A model generated the notes under the pieces. It saw only the letters and a list, made by a program, of their open reading frames with translations. It was not told where the DNA came from and searched no databases. Both the position numbers and the translations under genes were made by a program. This document shows, piece after piece, positions 3,766-38,586 of a stretch of DNA of 38,677 nt. Within the stretch, counting starts at the first letter, position 1. Each line of letters begins with the position of its first letter. The DNA is taken from the IMG/VR virus record IMGVR_UViG_3300045988_139913. One strand, 5' to 3'. This stretch comes from a virus (lineage: Duplodnaviria; Heunggongvirae; Uroviricota; Caudoviricetes).

Positions 3766-3799
3766 TTATCTAAAACCTCGGTTTACAGGAAACGGTAAA
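3766..3799. repeat. gix recombination site (gin-proximal inverted repeat of G segment)
   Basis: TTATCTAAAACCTCGGTTTACAGGAAACGGTAAA; inverted copy at ~6535..6569. Confidence 0.85.
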
Positions 3800-4736
3800 T
3801 CAGGCTTCTGGCTCATTACAGAAAAACCAGAACGGCGCAGATATTCCGGGAAAAGATACCTTCACCAAAAATATTGGTGCCTGCCGCGCATATAGCTCAT
3901 GGCTGAATATTGGTGGCGATAGTCAGGTCTGGACAACCGCGCAATTTATTTCGTGGCTGGAGAGTCAGGGAGCATTTAACCATCCTTACTGGATGTGCAA
4001 AGGCTCATGGGCTTATGCAAATAATAAGATCATTACAGATACAGGTTGCGGAAATATTTGTCTTGCAGGTGCTGTGGTGGAAGTTATTGGCACTCGCGGC
4101 GCAATGACCATACGCGTTACTACGCCGAGCACGTCCAGCGGTGGCGGAATTACTAACGCTCAATTCACCTATATTAATCATGGTGATGCTTATGCTCCTG
4201 GCTGGCGACGAGACTACAACACGAAAAACCAGCAGCCTGCATTTGCTTTAGGGCAAACAGGAAGCACTGTCGGAAATGATAAAGCTGTTGGCTGGAACTG
4301 GAACAGCGGGGTTTATTGCGCCAGCATCACCGGCGCATCAACATTAATTCTTCATTTCAATATGAATACGGGTAGTTGTCCAGCAGTACAGTTCCGCGTG
4401 AATTATAAGAACGGCGGTATCTTTTATCGTTCAGCCCGTGATGGTTATGGTTTTGAAGCCGACTGGTCCGAATTTTACACCACCACCAGAAAACCTTCAG
4501 CAGGAGATGTTGGTGCATATACTAAAGCGGAATGTAATTCACGATTTATTACAGGTGTCCGTTTAGGAGGACTGTCATCTGTTCAAACATGGAATGGGCC
4601 TGGTTGGTCTGATAAGTCAGGTTATGTCGTTACAGGTTCAGTTAACGGAAACCGTGACGAATTAATTGATACAACTCAGGCAAGGCCAATTCAGTATTGC
4701 ATTAATGGGACGTGGTATAACGCGGGGAGTATTTAA
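3774..4736 (+). CDS. Sv' alternative tail-fibre variable segment (no own start; expressed only after G inversion as Sc-Sv' fusion)
   Basis: Frame open from the gix core (NLGLQETV, identical to the Sc/Sv junction in S) to stop at 4736; ORF track only reports it from an internal ATG at 3993. Confidence 0.75.
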   Translation, partial: NLGLQETVNQASGSLQKNQNGADIPGKDTFTKNIGACRAYSSWLNIGGDSQVWTTAQFISWLESQGAFNHPYWMCKGSWAYANNKIITDTGCGNICLAGAVVEVIGTRGAMTIRVTTPSTSSGGGITNAQFTYINHGDAYAPGWRRDYNTKNQQPAFALGQTGSTVGNDKAVGWNWNSGVYCASITGASTLILHFNMNTGSCPAVQFRVNYKNGGIFYRSARDGYGFEADWSEFYTTTRKPSAGDVGAYTKAECNSRFITGVRLGGLSSVQTWNGPGWSDKSGYVVTGSVNGNRDELIDTTQARPIQYCINGTWYNAGSI

Positions 4737-4738
4737 CG

Positions 4739-5272
4739 ATGATGCACTTAAAAAACATTACTGCTGGCAATCCTAAAACAAAAGAGCAATATCAGCTAAC
4801 AAAGCAATTTAACATCAAATGGCTTTATACAGAGGATGGAAAAAACTGGTATGAGGAACAAAAGAATTTCCAGTCTGATACGTTGAAAATGGTCTATGAC
4901 CATAACGGCGTTATTATTTGTATTGAAAAGGATGTTTCAGCAATTAATCCAGAAGGCGCAAGCGTCGTTGAATTACCTGATATTACAGCAAATCGCCGGG
5001 CTGATATTTCGGGTAAATGGATGTTCAAAGATGGTGCGGTGATAAAGCGAACTTATACCGGGGAAGAGCAGAGGCAGCAGGCAGAGAATGAAAAACAAAG
5101 CCTGTTGCAACTTGTCAGGGATAAAACCCAGCTATGGGACTCACAGCTACGGCTGGGCATCATTTCCGATGAGAATAAACAGAAATTAACCGAGTGGATG
5201 CTCTATGCGCAGAAAGTCGAATCCACAGACACCTCCAGCCTGCCGGTAACATTCCCCGAACAACCAGAATGA
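4739..5272 (+). CDS. U' tail-fibre assembly protein (alternate orientation set)
   Basis: 177 aa immediately after Sv'; tail-fibre assembly (Tfa)-like; convergent with U. Confidence 0.75.
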   Translation: MMHLKNITAGNPKTKEQYQLTKQFNIKWLYTEDGKNWYEEQKNFQSDTLKMVYDHNGVIICIEKDVSAINPEGASVVELPDITANRRADISGKWMFKDGAVIKRTYTGEEQRQQAENEKQSLLQLVRDKTQLWDSQLRLGIISDENKQKLTEWMLYAQKVESTDTSSLPVTFPEQPE

Positions 5273-5398
5273 GAAAGGCCCGTTATCGGGCCTTAATTTT
5301 ACTCAGGCTTTTGTGGCCATCCAGGCTTTTCCATATCCACATGACTGCGGAAAGCAAGGAAATACAAAATAACAAAAATGATAATAATTGTGCTGGTA

Positions 5399-5884
5399 TT
5401 ATAGCGTCGTTTTCACATCCTCTGCGCTGCTCTCTTTGCCGCTTTGTTCGTCTGGAACAGCGGGCCACTCAATATCCGTCGCGGTTGATGTATCAATACG
5501 CATAAGCAGCACACGATATTTTTTCCATTCAGCCAGTACAGTGATTTCTGCTTCTGTCGCCATCCCTGCGTCAACAGCATCCTGCCGCCAGGCAATTTCT
5601 GTGTTCGCAATCTCGGCTAAATCCTTTTTCTTCTGCTCTTTTAATGCGATTAACTGCTCTGTTGTTGGTTCTGATACATCAATCCATGTAGGGAAACCAG
5701 ATTCATCACGGCCTCTCTTTTTTCCCTCTGGCGGTCTTCCCGTAAACTCTTCATACATATCGTTTGTGACTGCCACCAAATCGTCAGGCCATGCGCCTGA
5801 TTTTTCATAGTCCGGTTTCATGGATTCAAAGAAAAACGTATTATTCCTGGCACTATAGAATATTTTACTGGACATGATTAACAC
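5399..5884 (-). CDS. U: U tail-fibre assembly protein (currently expressed set)
   Basis: 161 aa directly downstream of S, Tfa-like. Confidence 0.75.
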   Translation of the reverse strand: MLIMSSKIFYSARNNTFFFESMKPDYEKSGAWPDDLVAVTNDMYEEFTGRPPEGKKRGRDESGFPTWIDVSEPTTEQLIALKEQKKKDLAEIANTEIAWRQDAVDAGMATEAEITVLAEWKKYRVLLMRIDTSTATDIEWPAVPDEQSGKESSAEDVKTTL

Positions 5885-7065
5885 CCCACACCAATACAGA
5901 AGAATGGTTTAGAAACAGCAACCCCAGACCTTTCCATTAACGTGACCTGCATATCGCGATCATTTAATCTTTTAACACCCGCAATTGCACTTGCTATCGA
6001 GTCACCAGCAACGTTACAGGCTAACAAACCAAAGCAACGAACAGGCCAACCAACAGGAAACGGGGCAGATGCCCAGCCACTGGCATCAGTATTTCCCCAA
6101 CACCATTGAAAAATGATGCCATTTGGAAAACGTACCCAGCCAGCATCGGCCATCGCCTGGGTAAAATCACTGTTTTTTGTATACCCCTGAATGCTCCATC
6201 CATTCTGGGGAATTAACTGCCTGATATTTCCATCCAAAGTAAATGCAACCTTGCGGCGGTCAGAAATATTGCCTGCCGGAGACAATGCAACATCTATGTA
6301 GTTCGCGCCATTTTCCATTATTCCGCAAATGAGCGATGACATAATCGCTCCGCCAAATGAGAAATCGACTCCATTTGCACTTCCTGCAACCGTGCTCTTG
6401 TTTCTGATGTGAATACCAGAAAAGCCATTATCTTTTTCAATAAGTAATTCATTCCCAATTAACGAGAGAATGCCCTTGATAATCACATCACCGTTAACCA
6501 CCCCGCCATATGTTGATAACGCTTCCGAAGCTAATTTTACAGTTTCCTGTAAACCGAGGTTTTGGATAAACAGCGGCTTATTGGGAATATCTGCTCCGTT
6601 CCGGTCTTTTGCCAGACGGGCATTGGCATTATCCATCGCAATTTTCACCGCTTTTGCGGTGGCTGCCAGCGTTTCACTGGGGCTGTCAGTGGCACTGGTT
6701 AGCTGAACGAGTCCTTTTTTGTTCAGGCTGGCATCCCAGATATCCAGATTTTCACGTGCTGTACGCTGTGCTGATGCCCCGGCAGTTTTAATTTCGCTGA
6801 GGTTATTTTTTATCAGCAGCGCGTTATTGCTCATAATGGCTTTAATGGACAGTGCAAGCTGGTTTAATTTTGTTTTATCCGGTTGAATACCGGCTTCTTC
6901 CAGCGTGTTTAATAACTCCGCCTGCACAATATTAAACCAGTCCATGCCGGGCCATGTGATAACATTATTCCCGTCACCTTCTGAAAACCAGCGAACGATA
7001 GCACTACGCTGGGCGGATACGGGCGGCATGACGGTTACGCCGCTGTCGTTATCAATATAAAACAT
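5878..7065 (-). CDS. S: S tail fibre (Sc constant part ~6538..7065 fused to Sv variable part inside G)
   Basis: 395 aa; spans the gix site at ~6538-6561 (NLGLQETV); start overlaps stop of upstream gene (TAATG). Confidence 0.85.
   Translation of the reverse strand: MFYIDNDSGVTVMPPVSAQRSAIVRWFSEGDGNNVITWPGMDWFNIVQAELLNTLEEAGIQPDKTKLNQLALSIKAIMSNNALLIKNNLSEIKTAGASAQRTARENLDIWDASLNKKGLVQLTSATDSPSETLAATAKAVKIAMDNANARLAKDRNGADIPNKPLFIQNLGLQETVKLASEALSTYGGVVNGDVIIKGILSLIGNELLIEKDNGFSGIHIRNKSTVAGSANGVDFSFGGAIMSSLICGIMENGANYIDVALSPAGNISDRRKVAFTLDGNIRQLIPQNGWSIQGYTKNSDFTQAMADAGWVRFPNGIIFQWCWGNTDASGWASAPFPVGWPVRCFGLLACNVAGDSIASAIAGVKRLNDRDMQVTLMERSGVAVSKPFFCIGVGC
6535..6569. repeat. gix recombination site inside S (Sc/Sv junction)
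   Basis: TTTCCTGTAAACCGAGGTTTTGGATAA, inverted repeat of the site at 3766..3799. Confidence 0.85.
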
Positions 7066-9708: not shown

Positions 9709-10835
9709 GGCGGCGTTTTCTCCGGGTGTCTGCGATAATAATCTTCAACCAGCGCATCAATACCGCCGTTACTGTCGTCGCCTTTCCTGTTTTTACGGTC
9801 GCTTTCAACCGGCACCAGAAAGCCTTCGCGTGGTGCAAGGCTGACGCGGGTTTTCAGCCCGTCCTGGTCATTCAGTATCAGGGTGACTTTGCTGACCAGT
9901 AATTCTGTGGTTTTGATGGCATATTTCGATGCATCAATAGTGACCAGCAGGTTCGGCATCCAGAGTTGCCCGTCCTTGCGTGTCCATCCGTCAATTTCTG
10001 CCTCAAAGGTGATGGATTTTGCCAGTCTGCGGCGTTGCTCACGCAGGGCGCGGGCCTGTGCATCCTTCGCCGTAATTTTGCTGTCGGCAATGATGATCAT
10101 CGGTCTGTAACGGGTCACATTACTGTCAGTGGCGGTCCCTTTCCGGGAGACGATACTTTTCGCATCAATATCATCACCCTCAGCACCGTTTGCGCGGGCA
10201 TACCCCTTGACGGTGTATTCGCTGAACCGGTCGCGGAAGTCTTCCTCAAAATCCAGTGTCAGCAGATTTTCTCCGAGAACCAGCTCATCAGTGGCTGTGC
10301 TGGCAGCCCGGCTGAATACCAGCTCTCCTGCGGCATTGCTGGTCATCAGTACACCGCGTGCGCGGGAGGCACGCACCAGCGCCTCATAAACGGTTTCTGA
10401 ATGGTCCAGCGTGAAGCCGGGAAAAGCTGCCGAACTTTCCTTATCGGAAAGCTCCCAGCGAACGGTAACGCCATAAGGAGCGCACAGGTCACGCGCAATC
10501 TGTTCCAGTGTGCGGTTTTTCCACTGCCCGCCACTGTAAACGGCAGCACAGTCAATCAGGTCAGCCGTTTTGTCACGTCCGGCGACAGTGATTTTCATAC
10601 TGTCAGCGGTCATCTGGCGTCGCCGTGAATCGATATAACCGGTGCAGACAATCTGCCCCTCGATTTCGAGCGTGAACTTCTTCCCCGGTGCCAGCCCGGA
10701 TAAATCCGTGCCCGGTGGCACGTTCACCCCCAGCTCAAAATATCCGGCTACGGATTCAATCGAGCGGGTGACAGAGACTGACGTCCAGCCGGTAAAAAGC
10801 CTGCCATCCGTTCGCAGCGTGACGGTATTACTCAT
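9696..10835 (-). CDS. Q: Baseplate hub / tail protein (Mu gp44-like)
   Basis: 379 aa downstream of P. Confidence 0.75.
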
Positions 10836-12315
10836 TAATCACCTCAATACTGACGCCACCGGGAACAAACAACGGGTTGCTGATACCGTTCCTGCGGGCC
10901 AGCCGTTGCCAGTTCCGGCTGTTTCCTGTGTAACGGTACAGGGCCACCATTGCAGGCATCGTCTCCGGCAGGCGGTGCGTTTCACTGCCCGCCAGTTGCA
11001 GCCCGCGTTTTTCCAGGTCGGCAACAACCAGCAGACGCAGTTGCGTAAGCTGAACGCTGTCTGTCGAAAAGCCCTGCTCAGATGCCGTCAGAATGACGGT
11101 ATCCAGTGCAGCCCCCAGCATGGCGGCTGTTTTTCCGATATCGGACACACTTTCAAATACCGGGGGCGTGGCTGTACCACTGTCTGAAAAGGATACCTGT
11201 GAAAAGCCGCCGTCCGGGGTTATGGCAGTTAACTGTAACTGTCCCTGTGTGACAGTAGCAGATGTGCTGCTGGCCCCGCTGGCTGTGCCGGTTGTGGTGG
11301 ACGGGGCATCCAGTACAGGTGCACGGGCGGCATTATCCATCCGGCGACTGAAATCCAGTGCCGCAGTCAGTGCCTGACTGGCAGCTTCTGCCCGGTATGT
11401 CTGCGCCGCTGCCAGCATGACGTAGTTCAGTGTGGCAATATTTTTTTCTGCAACCGGACTGTTGTACGAGGTTGTGATTGTCCCCTGTCTGCCTGCGGTG
11501 GCGGCATGGCGAGGTTCGAATCGCTGCGCCAGACGGTTCCATGTGGAAAATGCTGTCCGGGTATCGCATAACGATGAAACGCCGGACAGCGCCCCCATCA
11601 GCGAGGAGGCCAGCATGGCAGGCTGGTTAATCAGGCTGGTCACAGAGCCTTTCATCGCAGAAAGCGATCCCATCAGACCGCTGACAGTCTGCGTAACCCC
11701 CAGATTGTCCACCGCATCACTGATATCATCGATGACACCGGTTACAGCTTCCATCACGGCGGTTGCCGCCGCAGTGCCATCTTTTACGGTTTGCCAGACA
11801 GAGGACAGCGTATCTCCCAGAGAACCGGTTACAGCAACGGCCTGTGCAGGTACGGCTGCACTGGTGTCTGTCTCTGCGTCCGGGGCAGTATCCTGCAACG
11901 ACGGATAAACGGTAACGGTGAACGCGTAATAATTCAGTTCATCCGCTTTAGTGCGGCATTCCCATGAATCCACCATGACGTCCACAGTGCCGAAATCAGG
12001 ATGTACCAGCTCACCGCTACCCGGAGCATCAAGAGCATCCATCAGCGCACCCGCTTCATCTCTGGCTGTTTCTGCGTTGCTGTTCAGAATGCAGGCGCTG
12101 AATGTACGGGAGCGAAGCTTTTTCCCCAGGTCATTGACGCCGCCGGTATCACGTAACGGGTACTCGCGTTTAACCAGGCGACGTCCGCCAGCCTGTTTTT
12201 GCTCCTCGATGACGAGAAACGGCACGTTACGGAACGTGCCTTTGCCGGTTGTTTTCTTACCACCGCTGATTTTATCCCGGACAGCATTAACGGCATTTAA
12301 AGCATCTTCAAACAT
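10828..12315 (-). CDS. P: Tail/DNA-circularisation protein (Mu gp43-like)
   Basis: 495 aa immediately after tape-measure gene. Confidence 0.75.
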
Positions 12316-14392
12316 GGTTTTCCCAGCCTGTAATGTAGTTATCGCCCGCGTAAATATTCAGCCCCATACCATCCTCGGTGACACGGGAACTGGCCAGACG
12401 TAACCCCTCGCCAAGTTCGACGCGCAGCGAGGCTTCCGCATTCACTTTTTGTTCCTGCGGTTCCTTATCCGGGGCCGTCCATTTCTGATACAGGTCGGTT
12501 ACAAAACCGCCCAGATACTCCCCGGCGACACTGCCCAGCGTGGCACCGGCAACCGTACCCAGCGGTCCGGCAAGGCTGCCAACGGCACCGCCGAGCCATG
12601 CACCGGCTGTACTGCCAATTGCACCTGCTTTTTCATGGGTTGACGCCTGCTCATCCATCAGGACGGGGGCAAGCTGGAGTGCCCCCATTACCGGGCCACC
12701 CAGACGTGACAACGCACGACCGGCACCTTTCCCCATCCAGCCCAGCGCCCCGGCACCTTTTGTCACAACCCGACCGATCGCACTGCCTGCAAGTTTGTTT
12801 CCGATACCGGAAAACCACCCGCCAACAGCACGCCCGGCATCAGCCAGCTTTCCGACCGTTCCCGTAACCAGTTGCCCGGCAGCACTGCCTGCAAGCCTGC
12901 TCAGAAGACCGGATTTACCGGGTAAAGGTAATGGTGCAGGCCGTGCTGTTACCGGTACGCCGGGTGGGGGTAATGCCAGTACAGGGCGTGGTGCAGGTAA
13001 TGCCAGCGGCTGTGGCCCGGACAGCAATAACGGCTGGCGGGGTAACAGCGGGGCCATTCTTCCGCCGCTCCGTCCGCGACGACCGCCGCCACTCCCGTAG
13101 CCACCAAATCCACGGGGCCAGTTGATGACAAACACACGCTGAATGCCGATACCCTGCAACAGCGTCTCAGACGTCATGGCATCCGGGACCGGCAGACCTG
13201 CCTGCCCACGTTTGCGGTTTCGCATCCAGCGCCACATACGACGCCCGGTTTTAAACGGATAACTGGCAACCTGCCATGAGGGTTTTGCCACGGCCCAGCC
13301 TGCTCTCAGGGCTTTATTGGCAAGCCAGACAGACACCAGAACAGCAGCCAGTTTTTTCAGGCTGACAATATTCTGGTCAACCCATGCCAGCGCATCTTTA
13401 CCCGGTTTCAGCCAGCGCCATAATTCCTGCGCCGCGATTTTTACCGTTCTGAACGTGGTCAGAAATTTCTGACCAATGTTTTCTGCCAGTGCGTCAAGTT
13501 CCCCGGATTTATCCGCCATGTCGTGCCAGTTAAGCACCCGGCGCATCTCGTTCTTGATTTCTTCAAAGGGGCCGCTGTTTGCCACCTTTATGCGAAATTC
13601 AAGCAGGTTAGCTTCCATCTGGGCGAACATCCCGTCCCAGGAGTTCATCGCACTGGCCTGTGCACCTTTTGACTGTTCTGACAGCGTTCTGAATACCGTC
13701 AGAATGGATTTCAGACCCAGCTTGCCTTTTTCACCTTGTTTGCGGATATCCTTAACGTCTTTACCCAGTGCATCCGCCAGCGTCTGGTAAACGTTAATAC
13801 CGTAACCGGTCAGCAGGTTGGCATCCGCCGCTGTGATTTGCTGGCGGGCAAACATCTGTTTCAGTTGCAGTGAGGCACCCTGTGCAGTTGGTAAATCCCA
13901 GCCGTGCATGGCCCCCTGATCCTGCAACATGGTGATGAACTGTTTCGTCTGTTCATCCGTCATGCCGAAGCCTTTCGACGAACGGATCTCATCAAGAACA
14001 CCACTCAGCCCCCACGTGGTGTCCTTCGCGTTCTGCTTCGCCCAGGCCATCATGGCCTGCGCTCTGACCTTATCGCCGTGATACAGCGAGTTCATGGCGA
14101 TGATCTGCTGCTCACGCTGGGCGGCTGCACCAATAAACAGTTTATTGGCGGTGTAACCCACGCCAGCGATACCCAGCGCCCCGGCTGACAGCATTCGGAA
14201 TGTACGGGTTGACAGAGAACCCATTCTGTCAATGGCACCAGAAACGCGCACAACCTCCATACGCAGGGCACGAAGGGAACTTTGTCCGCTACGGGACAGG
14301 GCGTTTATCTGGTTCGAATACTGGCGGGAACGCCGGGAAAGATTGCCATTAAGATCAATAATGACAGACGCCTTTAAGCGTTTCCCGGTCAT
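12308..14392 (-). CDS. N: Tail tape-measure protein
   Basis: 694 aa, longest tail gene, Gly/Pro-rich low-complexity core, located between chaperone-like Y and P. Confidence 0.85.
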
Positions 14393-14536
14393 AGAGATTT
14401 CCTGATTTAACGGTGATATTGAGAGAGGGTTTTAGCCTGCTGGCAGTGCCGGAAAAAGCGGGACAGCGGAAGGGATAAGGCCCATTCCGGGCCACTTTTC
14501 AGAATAACGCCAATCGCTGTCGCCGCTTTCTCAATA

Positions 14537-14971
14537 TCATTCCGGCACCGCAGCCACTCGCCCCCGTTCTTGCGTCAGCGATGCCGCCACAGCCATGTCG
14601 TACATTTCTGTGGCCAGCGACAGACGCTGGAAGTCATCGACAGACAGCTTACGAATCAGCGCCATCGACAACGGGCCTTTGATGCAGCCCACGCTGGCAA
14701 TCTGTCGGCGCAGCATTTCCAGTCCCATCCGGGACGGGGAACTGACCAGCACCGGACCTTCCTTGCTCATTACCAGCTTTTCAGCAGCCGCCTGTGCATC
14801 AATCATATCGCCTGCGGTCAGTTCACGCAGTGTCACGTCATACTGCATTTCAGTCTCGTCACCGGTGCCGAACGGCAGGCCGTCTTTCAGTTTCAGCACG
14901 CCGGACTGAATTTCTGCCACAATGCTGTCATGCAGTTCCTGTGCTTCAGGACCTAAATTCATTTCGTCCAT
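14537..14971 (-). CDS. Y: Tail assembly chaperone-like protein (Mu gp41-like)
   Basis: 144 aa, between tail tube and tape measure. Confidence 0.7.
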   Translation of the reverse strand: MDEMNLGPEAQELHDSIVAEIQSGVLKLKDGLPFGTGDETEMQYDVTLRELTAGDMIDAQAAAEKLVMSKEGPVLVSSPSRMGLEMLRRQIASVGCIKGPLSMALIRKLSVDDFQRLSLATEMYDMAVAASLTQERGRVAAVPE

Positions 14972-14980
14972 TGTTTCCCC

Positions 14981-15337
14981 TTATGCAATGCGTTTGCTTT
15001 GTTTTGCCATCAGTACCAGCGAAATTTCGCCGCCGTCGTTTTTCGGTTCATCTGCCTGCCAGGCATTCGCCATCATCCAGGTTTCACCGGTGTCTGCCTG
15101 AAACTCTGCCGTGATATTTTCCCAGCCGATGATTTCATCCAGACCGATATCACCACCGCCCGGAATTTTGCATTCCAGCTTTGCGGCACGTGGTTTACCT
15201 TTCCAGCCATAAACCCGCGAGCCGGTCACTTCTTCACGGGTGATGCCGGAAGGTGTGAAGGAGGCCCCTTCCATCGTTTCAAGCTCCATGCCATTGACAC
15301 GGATGAACGCCACCCCCTGACGCTGATTTCCAGCCAT
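14981..15337 (-). CDS. M: Tail tube protein
   Basis: 118 aa directly after sheath gene. Confidence 0.8.
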   Translation of the reverse strand: MAGNQRQGVAFIRVNGMELETMEGASFTPSGITREEVTGSRVYGWKGKPRAAKLECKIPGGGDIGLDEIIGWENITAEFQADTGETWMMANAWQADEPKNDGGEISLVLMAKQSKRIA

Positions 15338-15346
15338 AAATGCTCC

Positions 15347-16834
15347 TTACAGAATGAACTGAACTTGTGCCGCGAAAATGCGGAACTGGTTAATCAGATT
15401 CGGGCCGCACAGCACATCAAGACGGTCTTTGTCGTCCTTGTTACGTGCCACATACAGCTCCTCTTTGAACGTGTCGAAATCCTCGACCAGTCCGGCGTTT
15501 TCCCATTCTTCAAACAGTGCCAGCAGTTCCGTTTTGATCACGGATGGCGTCACCACGGCCTGACCGGTGGCAAAGCGGGTGCCATCACTTGCCAGCTTGT
15601 AGTTCGGGAATTTCTGCGTGATGCGGGTTCGCAGCGAATAACGCAGATAACTCAGCGTGGCGATGGTATTCACGTTCAGATAAGACGGATCACTGTCACC
15701 GTACTTGTTTGTGCGGTACATCGTGATCATGCGTTCAATCTGCATTTCACCACCATCATTCACGTTAAACGTGGAGATGCCGTCAAACAGCAGCGCATTA
15801 CGTTCTGACCAGGTAAAACGATCCCCCACCGCAGGCGGCATTCTTCCGGGCAACGTCAGCGTCTGGAGCGGACGCGCCGGGTCGATGGAAAGCGCCTGGC
15901 TGGCAACGGCACACAGTGTGGCGGCGTACAGATATGACGGTTCCGGTGCACCGGCAATCCCCATACAGGAGATCAGATGGTCATTACGACTGACACCAAA
16001 CGTAGAAATATCCCCATACGTGCCGGACAGCACTGTCACGGCAAAACCATCAGCCTGATTGACCGGTCCCCAGCGTTCCTGCAATTCAGTGCGTAACAGA
16101 TTCAGGTTCGGTTCATCGGTATAGGGCATCACAATATATTTGTATTGCAGATCGCCCATTCCCGCGATACTTGCGCTGATATCCGGGTTGCCATTTTTCC
16201 CGGAGGCGGCTTTGAATGCCGTGATAATCCCGTAAGGGGTGGTTTCACCCGCGTAATAGTTCCAGCGCACGTCCACGGCAGATAATGCACCCGTAAATTT
16301 TGCACTCAGAACCACATCTGCATGGGTGTCATCATCTCCGCTGTCTGCGCGAACTTCTGCCGTCACCGGTAAATCCGGCTGGCCTTTGATTCGGGCAACC
16401 AGCAGGTCAGCCAGCGCCGCTCCCGTTGCACCTGCTGCGACAGATACCGCCAGTCGCTGACCGGCAATGTAAGTCACAAGCGAGCCGTTTTCGCCTGCCG
16501 TTCCTGACAGTGAAATTTCACCGACAGCAGCATTACCGGTGCCGTTCCCCTGCGGAATACACCACAGCTCCGCCACGCGGTTAGCGTTCAGGAATGCATC
16601 TGCCATCAGTGCCAGCATGGAACCCTGACCAAACGCCGCACTGGCCTGTGAGCCGGAACGGATACGGACAGGCACGTTTGGTGCCGCACTGGCTTTACTT
16701 CCGCTTTGCCCGAACATCAGCACGCGCTGACGGGGTGCCGGTGTTCCGCTGACGGCATTACTGTTATCAAATTCGATATACGTCAGAGGAACGCGAACAT
16801 CTGACGGGATCGCGTTAAATGAAATATCGCTCAT
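15347..16834 (-). CDS. L: Contractile tail sheath protein
   Basis: 495 aa; size and position as Mu gpL. Confidence 0.85.
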
Positions 16835-38581: not shown

Positions 38582-38586
38582 CCCGC
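38582..38586. repeat. Target-site duplication CCCGC (left-end side of prophage)
   Basis: Identical to 1600..1604. Confidence 0.8.

Follow-up and report, generated by a model that had tools for sequence, protein, structure and literature searches.

The stretch of DNA considered here (hereafter the window) is 38,677 nucleotides long and carries a Mu-type prophage that shows two differences from Mu_3F6 in 27,857 aligned bases. The feature under study lies in an open reading frame at 12308..14392 on the minus strand, and this gene is that of the Mu tape-measure protein, gp42. Our reasons for this assignment are that: (i) the product, 694 aa long here and 690 aa in Mu, matches the Pfam family TMP_3 (PF20155) over aa 106-266 with 58.7 bits against a cut-off of 41 (E 8.4e-16); (ii) the gene is collinear over its full length with gene 42 of Mu in a Mu-type genome, with DNA identities of 97.9% to Mu, 99.3% to D108 and effectively 100% to Mu_3F6 (2,085 nt); (iii) in a PDB sequence search residues 1-690 match 9ki1 chain g, the 'Probable tape measure protein' (Mu gp42, NP_050646) and (iv) the minus-strand gene order is sheath (15347-16834), tube (14981-15337), Gp41_Mu chaperone (14537-14971), the gp42 ORF and then a DNA_circ_N gene (10828-12315), which is the arrangement of chaperone, tape measure and baseplate-tube-initiator downstream of sheath and tube by which a tape-measure gene is recognized. 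All 13 full-length phage records that match the gene align to it as a single ungapped piece of 2,085 nt without an indel, at 94.8-100% DNA identity. A preliminary description of this DNA had called the gene a tape-measure gene, which the TMP_3 match and the identity to Mu gene 42 bear out, and had labelled its product the N protein, which is a misnomer; N is gp43, the DNA-circularisation protein, and it is encoded by the adjacent ORF (10828..12315, minus strand), where the DNA_circ_N domain sits and which the Mu and D108 records name N. Matches of gp42 to CHCHD2/CHCHD10 structures in the PDB were weak and compositional (E >= 0.03) and were set aside as low-complexity noise.

The prophage is complete, extending from 1605 to 38581 (36,977 bp) with TG...CA ends, and a 5-bp direct duplication, CCCGC, flanks it at 1600-1604 and 38582-38586; a 5-bp duplication of this kind is what Mu transposition characteristically leaves. 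On both sides the flanking DNA matches the portal/terminase region of another E. coli prophage, from which it follows that Mu inserted in the portal gene of a resident prophage. A block of about 2.8 kb (3766-6569), which is the invertible G segment with the tail-fibre genes S/U and S'/U', has the reverse orientation to that in Mu_3F6, the remainder being collinear, so the window carries the opposite G orientation. In addition, genes 41 and 42 are separated by a 144-nt gap where the +1/-2 frame is open over 55 codons (14393-14575, minus strand); this frame begins within the 3' end of gene 41, near CGG GGG CGA, and bridges to gene 42. The tail-assembly chaperone of Mu is made by a -2 programmed frameshift (PMC5009743, PMC2628397), and the open frame fits this.

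The window gene also carries a change at its 3' end. At the normal stop position of gp42 (codon 691; 12320..12322, minus strand) it reads GAA where all relatives examined have TAA, and this adds four residues, ENHV, before a TGA (12308-12310) is reached, which overlaps with the start of gene N. This is one of the two differences from Mu_3F6, which has TAA as do six other Muvirus genomes. Among the 120 database clusters listed, a length of 694 aa is found only in the cluster that matches the window. The GAA could reflect an error in sequencing, or it could be a rare variant that lengthens the C-terminus, the part of gp42 that docks in the baseplate hub.

The flagged stretch, 12900-13110, corresponds to aa 428-498 of gp42, and both peptides quoted in the preliminary description are present in the 694-aa ORF. 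The Pro/Gly-rich, low-complexity core that it proposed is real. Proline makes up 16 of the 71 residues (22.5%) against 2.1% of the remaining protein (Fisher P = 7e-10), and glycine 19.7% against 12.0% outside; the core proper, aa 447-492, has 16 prolines in 46 residues. The final conserved anchor preceding this low-complexity linker is a VFVINWP motif (aa 420-426; 13115..13135, minus strand), of which V420, V422 and N424 are invariant, and P426 nearly so, in homologues down to 23% identity. Next comes a basic tract rich in glycine and arginine (aa 428-445; 13058..13111, minus strand), which is defined by composition and coincides in position with a Gly/Lys/Arg-rich tract in distant homologues. 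It is followed by a Pro/Leu/Ala-rich tract with all 16 prolines (aa 447-491; 12920..13054, minus strand) that is nearly invariant across seven Muvirus genomes. Three units, all on the minus strand and all single in the window, can be delimited in and beyond this tract: a 17-aa unit (aa 462-478; 12959..13009) that holds both copies of the DNA motif discussed below and is present twice in 703-aa alleles of the protein; a 14-aa unit (aa 475-488; 12929..12970) that DNA and protein alignments show to be duplicated in 766- and 828-aa alleles; and a 62-aa (186-nt) module (aa 479-540; 12773..12958), of which relatives have one or two extra copies, termed B, upstream of the resident one. Every 30-aa block between aa 301 and 570 of gp42 has a net positive charge. 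A separate 32-nt direct repeat at 12780-12811 and 12882-12913 (75% identity, spacing 102 nt or 34 aa) encodes two 13-aa peptides, and the Gly/Ala-rich C-terminal third of gp42 may have been built from older, degenerate repeats of this kind.

A 186-aa ORF (12540..13100) exists on the plus strand opposite this region, and the compositional signal could in principle belong to it instead. We think this almost certainly wrong, since the product would be Pro/Ala/Gly low complexity read off a stretch of 61-68% GC, the opposing minus-strand ORF encodes a well-supported and structurally verified protein, and no record annotates a plus-strand gene at this place. We rejected the antisense ORF, which most probably owes its existence to the GC-rich composition of the codons.

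The repeated DNA motifs that had been reported in the flagged stretch are also genuine. The 38.7-kb window has exactly two copies of GGTAATGCCAG, at 12969-12979 and 12996-13006, which are in frame and 27 nt (9 codons) apart; with one mismatch allowed there are 5 matches against 0.70 expected, a number reached by none of 100 shuffles. The pentamer GGTAA is found 5 times in the 211 nt, where 0.32 would be expected from the remaining window. GGTAA is the complement of a Leu(TTA)-Pro(CCN) codon pair, and TTA codes for 6 of the 11 leucines in aa 447-491 compared to 4 of 65 elsewhere (P = 3e-4). The proposed tandem-repeat periodicity, on the other hand, does not hold for this window: Tandem Repeats Finder (TRF) detected no array in 12900-13110 even at its lowest threshold (minimum score 30), which is the result that the preliminary description had itself named as refuting the idea. 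A repeat finder recovered from the flagged stretch just two imperfect copies of 17 nt (88% identity) at 27-nt spacing. Shuffling the codons of the region produced an exact local repeat of at least 11 nt in 0.6% of cases, and synonymous reshuffling, which preserves the protein, did so in 7%, from which we conclude that the DNA repeat is beyond chance but mainly mirrors a repeat in the peptide. At the DNA level, the GGTAATGCCAG pair simply records a degenerate LALP...LALP half-repeat within the 17-aa unit, where LALPAPRPV is followed by a 10-aa partner.

A sceptical reading would be that the composition has arisen by chance and that the GGTAATGCCAG pair is a coincidence. There are two copies only, TRF is negative, further exact repeats of 11 to 14 nt are present at other places in the gp42 gene and, once the protein is held fixed, the identical codon choice is just mildly unusual (P = 0.07). 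Such a reading is very unlikely given the strength of the proline enrichment and the frequency of the local 11-mer repeat under codon shuffling (P = 0.006), and it is largely refuted by the family data described next, where the unit bearing GGTAATGCCAG is duplicated in the 703-aa alleles and the indels all fall in the flagged stretch.

When 122 close relatives were aligned pairwise with the window protein, every internal indel fell within aa 435-499, and substitutions were densest in aa 391-570. Natural gp42 alleles of 690 aa (the common length), 691, 703, 766, 814 and 828 aa were found, those of 766 and 814 aa in a large protein database, those of 691 and 828 aa in viral contigs and that of 703 aa in complete E. 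coli genomes. The 691-aa allele differs by one additional residue in the Gly/Arg tract. In the 703-aa allele the 17-aa unit, PLALPAPxxVxALPxPx, is present twice and the Gly/Arg tract is 4 aa shorter; the representative of this allele from SE11 (WP_000147077) is 87% identical to the window in DNA and 90% in protein, and TRF reported no array in it, the two 17-aa units sharing only 59% DNA identity. In the 766-aa allele (P0002) there is an extra 14-aa unit, PPPxVPxxARPAPx, together with one more 62-aa module; the 814-aa allele (P0009) has two additional 62-aa modules, and the 828-aa allele (L028) has two additional 62-aa modules and an additional 14-aa unit. Outside the insertion the 766- and 814-aa alleles are 97% and 95% identical to the window in DNA. 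The insertion site of the relatives corresponds to about 12921-12970 of the window; for the 766- and 828-aa alleles it is immediately 3' of the 14-aa unit, at about 12921-12929. DNA identity is 94-99% among the B copies and about 74-76% between these and the resident one. In keeping with this, TRF did detect an array with a 186-nt period in relatives, namely 2.6 copies at 93% in one contig (L009) and 1.8 copies at 81% in another (L007).

The idea that repeat number makes this site a hotspot of variation, as the preliminary description had it, can therefore be upheld for the family, all of whose indels are in aa 435-499, and not for the window, which has no array. Similarly, it is correct that the copy number of a repeat varies, but the varying units are 42, 51 and 186 nt long and are neither GGTAA nor the 11-mer. 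As the window gene has a single module and single units, it represents the minimal allele.

With regard to where the long alleles occur, the gene in six other Muvirus genomes (Mu, D108, SfMu, PhiR68_1, vB_YpM_5 and Tongde) shows zero indels relative to the window, and the Pro tract is identical in them save for one residue in one phage. Each of the 13 matching phage records has a single module, and no sequenced phage isolate has a long allele. The 766- and 814-aa alleles reside in otherwise complete Mu-type prophages in which the flanking tail genes are unchanged, the sheath (495 aa), tube (118 aa) and chaperone (144 aa) being of unaltered length, and the long alleles in RefSeq complete genomes are annotated as tape measure protein. 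The Mu-type prophages of E. coli strains S6 (NZ_CP107134) and 1290 (NZ_CP184007) are examples with the 814-aa allele. Of 5,426 complete E. coli genomes, 44 have a Mu-type tape-measure gene and 2 contain a junction between two B modules. A second protein search for higher copy numbers, with the 292-aa linker of the 828-aa allele as query, gave 10 hits and no new alleles; most of these hits are short, and five bear a source name that marks them as partial. A contig scan with the gp42 protein yielded 46 pattern matches, none of which was confirmed by tblastn.

The linker also seems to be a break point of short-read assemblies. Three viral contigs from draft assemblies (L024, L026 and L031) start or stop inside the tape-measure gene at aa 443-456, and the short proteins P0123, P0128 and P0272-P0276 matched the linker query, five of them being 'partial' according to their source. 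The breaks may be caused by the 186-nt repeats or by the presence of two diverged Mu-type prophages in one genome.

Scanning 1.8 billion representatives without a profile yielded 1,644 relatives of gp42. Among the matches listed below about 40% identity, the best-matching stretch mostly stops before about aa 450. When 12 full-length homologues (23-61% identity) are aligned, they share a common order, in which a conserved VQxVFVTNWP motif is followed by a Gly/Lys/Arg basic tract, a variable spacer and, finally, a Gly-rich region and a C-terminus that are both conserved. The spacer after the basic tract varies both in length and in composition across the 12 homologues, and a Pro-rich tract is present in the window and in the 59%-identical P0121 only.

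That homology to distant tape measures breaks at this boundary, in a sequence that is exposed, Arg-rich and of low complexity, could also be taken to mean that the stretch is a hinge or proteolytic site parting an N-terminal ruler from a C-terminal, membrane-active fragment. The C-terminus of lambda gpH is trimmed, and processing of gp42 would resemble it. We regard this as highly improbable, as no evidence for gp42 processing turned up in the literature consulted (PMC11915804), and production of a separate fragment from an internal start is argued against by the lack of conservation of Met446, which is replaced by Thr both in P0009 and in the alleles of 703 aa. An internal translation start at Met446 was rejected on the same grounds.

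We favor the possibility that the flagged stretch is a low-complexity linker in the center of gp42, probably non-helical, that serves as filler of ruler length and tolerates the duplication of its units, and we consider this likely. The linker would come after the helical N-terminal two-thirds of the protein (the TMP_3 domain, a hydrophobic helix and the VFVINWP motif) and would consist of the basic Gly/Arg tract (aa 428-445) and the 45-residue Pro/Leu/Ala tract (aa 447-491), the latter running into a Gly/Ala-rich C-terminal third whose terminal 17 residues dock in the baseplate hub. Lying in the interior of the tail tube, it would add length to the ruler without forming a folded domain, and its basic charge may face the negatively charged lumen of the tube. 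This is in line with the cryo-EM structure of Mu, where gp42 is a trimer in the tube lumen of which residues 674-690 only are modelled, docked in the hub and spike, and where 30 rings, each rising by 35 Å, make up a tube whose lumen is strongly negative (PMC11915804). The length of the protein agrees with a ruler function; using the published values for the Mu protein, which is 98% identical to that of the window, 690 aa x 1.5 Å gives 103.5 nm compared to 105 nm for 30 x 35 Å, or about 23 aa per ring. AlphaFold2, run with the 12-sequence alignment, predicted helices up to aa 394, coil in aa 395-564 and helices again in aa 565-639, with a mean pLDDT of 47; across the linker the pLDDT is 25-38, and 'coil' there may mean merely not predictable. 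The analysis shows the identity of the gene, its composition, the lack of a tandem array in the window and the location of all length variants at this site, whereas disorder or extension of the linker, its contact with the tube lumen and any effect on tail length are inferred. That the exact sequence of the linker is of little importance would explain why it is the sole indel-tolerant site in the Mu-type protein family. The near invariance of the Pro tract in the compared Muvirus genomes counts against a filler, and the sequence could be under constraint.

It is also conceivable that the linker has a specific job after ejection, either as a rigid Pro-rich rod spanning the periplasm, with the flanking hydrophobic and Gly-zipper segments entering membranes to form a conduit for the DNA, or through binding of the DNA end by the Gly/Arg tract. 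The tape measure leaves the virion together with the DNA (PMC11915804), and the linker has a hydrophobic helix (aa 342-370) on one side and, on the other, a weak Gly-zipper match (aa 592-629). Distant homologues keep a basic tract at this position. The Pro tract barely changes among seven Muvirus genomes while its flanks vary, and this near-invariance slightly favors such a role. We nonetheless consider it rather unlikely because the Pro-rich character is gone below about 50% identity, the Gly-zipper match (PF13488) scores 18.2 bits and is under the Pfam cut-off of 25, and the site accepts changes in length of 13 to 138 aa.

Returning to the linker as ruler filler, duplication of the 14-, 17- and 62-aa units within it would have given rise to the alleles of 703, 766, 814 and 828 aa, and longer gp42 alleles would be expected to direct the assembly of longer tails. 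On the above arithmetic, the predicted number of extra tube rings is about 0.5 for the 703-aa allele, 3 for the 766-aa allele, 5 for the 814-aa allele and 6 for the 828-aa allele; at 23.3 aa per ring the last three would have about 33, 35 and 36 rings in all, compared to 30 in Mu. We tentatively suggest that the series from 690 to 828 aa is generated solely through the copy number of the 14-, 17- and 62-aa units and that the longer alleles build functional contractile tails with about 3-6 extra sheath and tube rings, although we hold this as a possibility rather than an expectation; the long alleles are absent from sequenced phage isolates and so could be those of defective prophages. If the suggestion is true, the series would allow the ruler mechanism of a myovirus to be tested on ready-made, naturally occurring alleles, and it might be an adaptation to hosts whose envelope is thicker.

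The flagged feature itself is already known, as the sequence is that of Mu gp42, and both the control of tail length by the length of the tape measure and variation of the latter through internal repeats and low-complexity tracts are established. Its importance for the window is accordingly limited, the sequence being essentially that of Mu's known tape-measure protein. The allelic series of Mu-type gp42 may not have been described before and would be a modest addition. It provides a map in which natural length variation of the Mu-type tape measure is confined to one linker and occurs in defined units, which shows where length can be altered when Mu tails are engineered or compared, and it identifies prophages with 766-, 814- and 828-aa alleles as test cases for the ruler rule in a contractile-tailed phage.

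With regard to known systems, gp42 of Mu, D108, SfMu and Mu_3F6 is the product of the same gene, and the flagged peptide differs among them at 1-2 residues at most; relative to the Mu group, the window differs in its stop codon (TAA to GAA) and in the ENHV added to the C-terminus. A proline-rich spacer that lies in the periplasm is found in TonB. The gp42 linker is like it in being a Pro-rich, probably extended segment beside a hydrophobic helix; the likeness is compositional only, and unlike TonB the linker has neither (Glu-Pro)n or (Lys-Pro)n arrays nor any sequence relationship to that protein. There is precedent for changes in ruler length in lambda gpH and in the TMP of the lactococcal phage TP901-1, where in-frame deletions and duplications alter the length of the tail. 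More broadly, tandem repeats and homorepeats in tape measures correlate with tail length, the homorepeats being mainly polyA, polyG, polyS and polyT and not Pro-rich (PMC13585406). The Mu-type alleles of 690-828 aa resemble all of these rulers in varying through internal repeats and low-complexity tracts. They differ from them in that the repeats are single-copy in the window and that variation across the Mu-type family takes place at one site, by way of a composite 62-aa module that is part Pro-rich and part Gly/Ala-rich. Compared to the window, the long alleles of E. coli are expanded at about 12921-12970, by one or two further 62-aa modules, by a further 14- or 17-aa unit, or by both.
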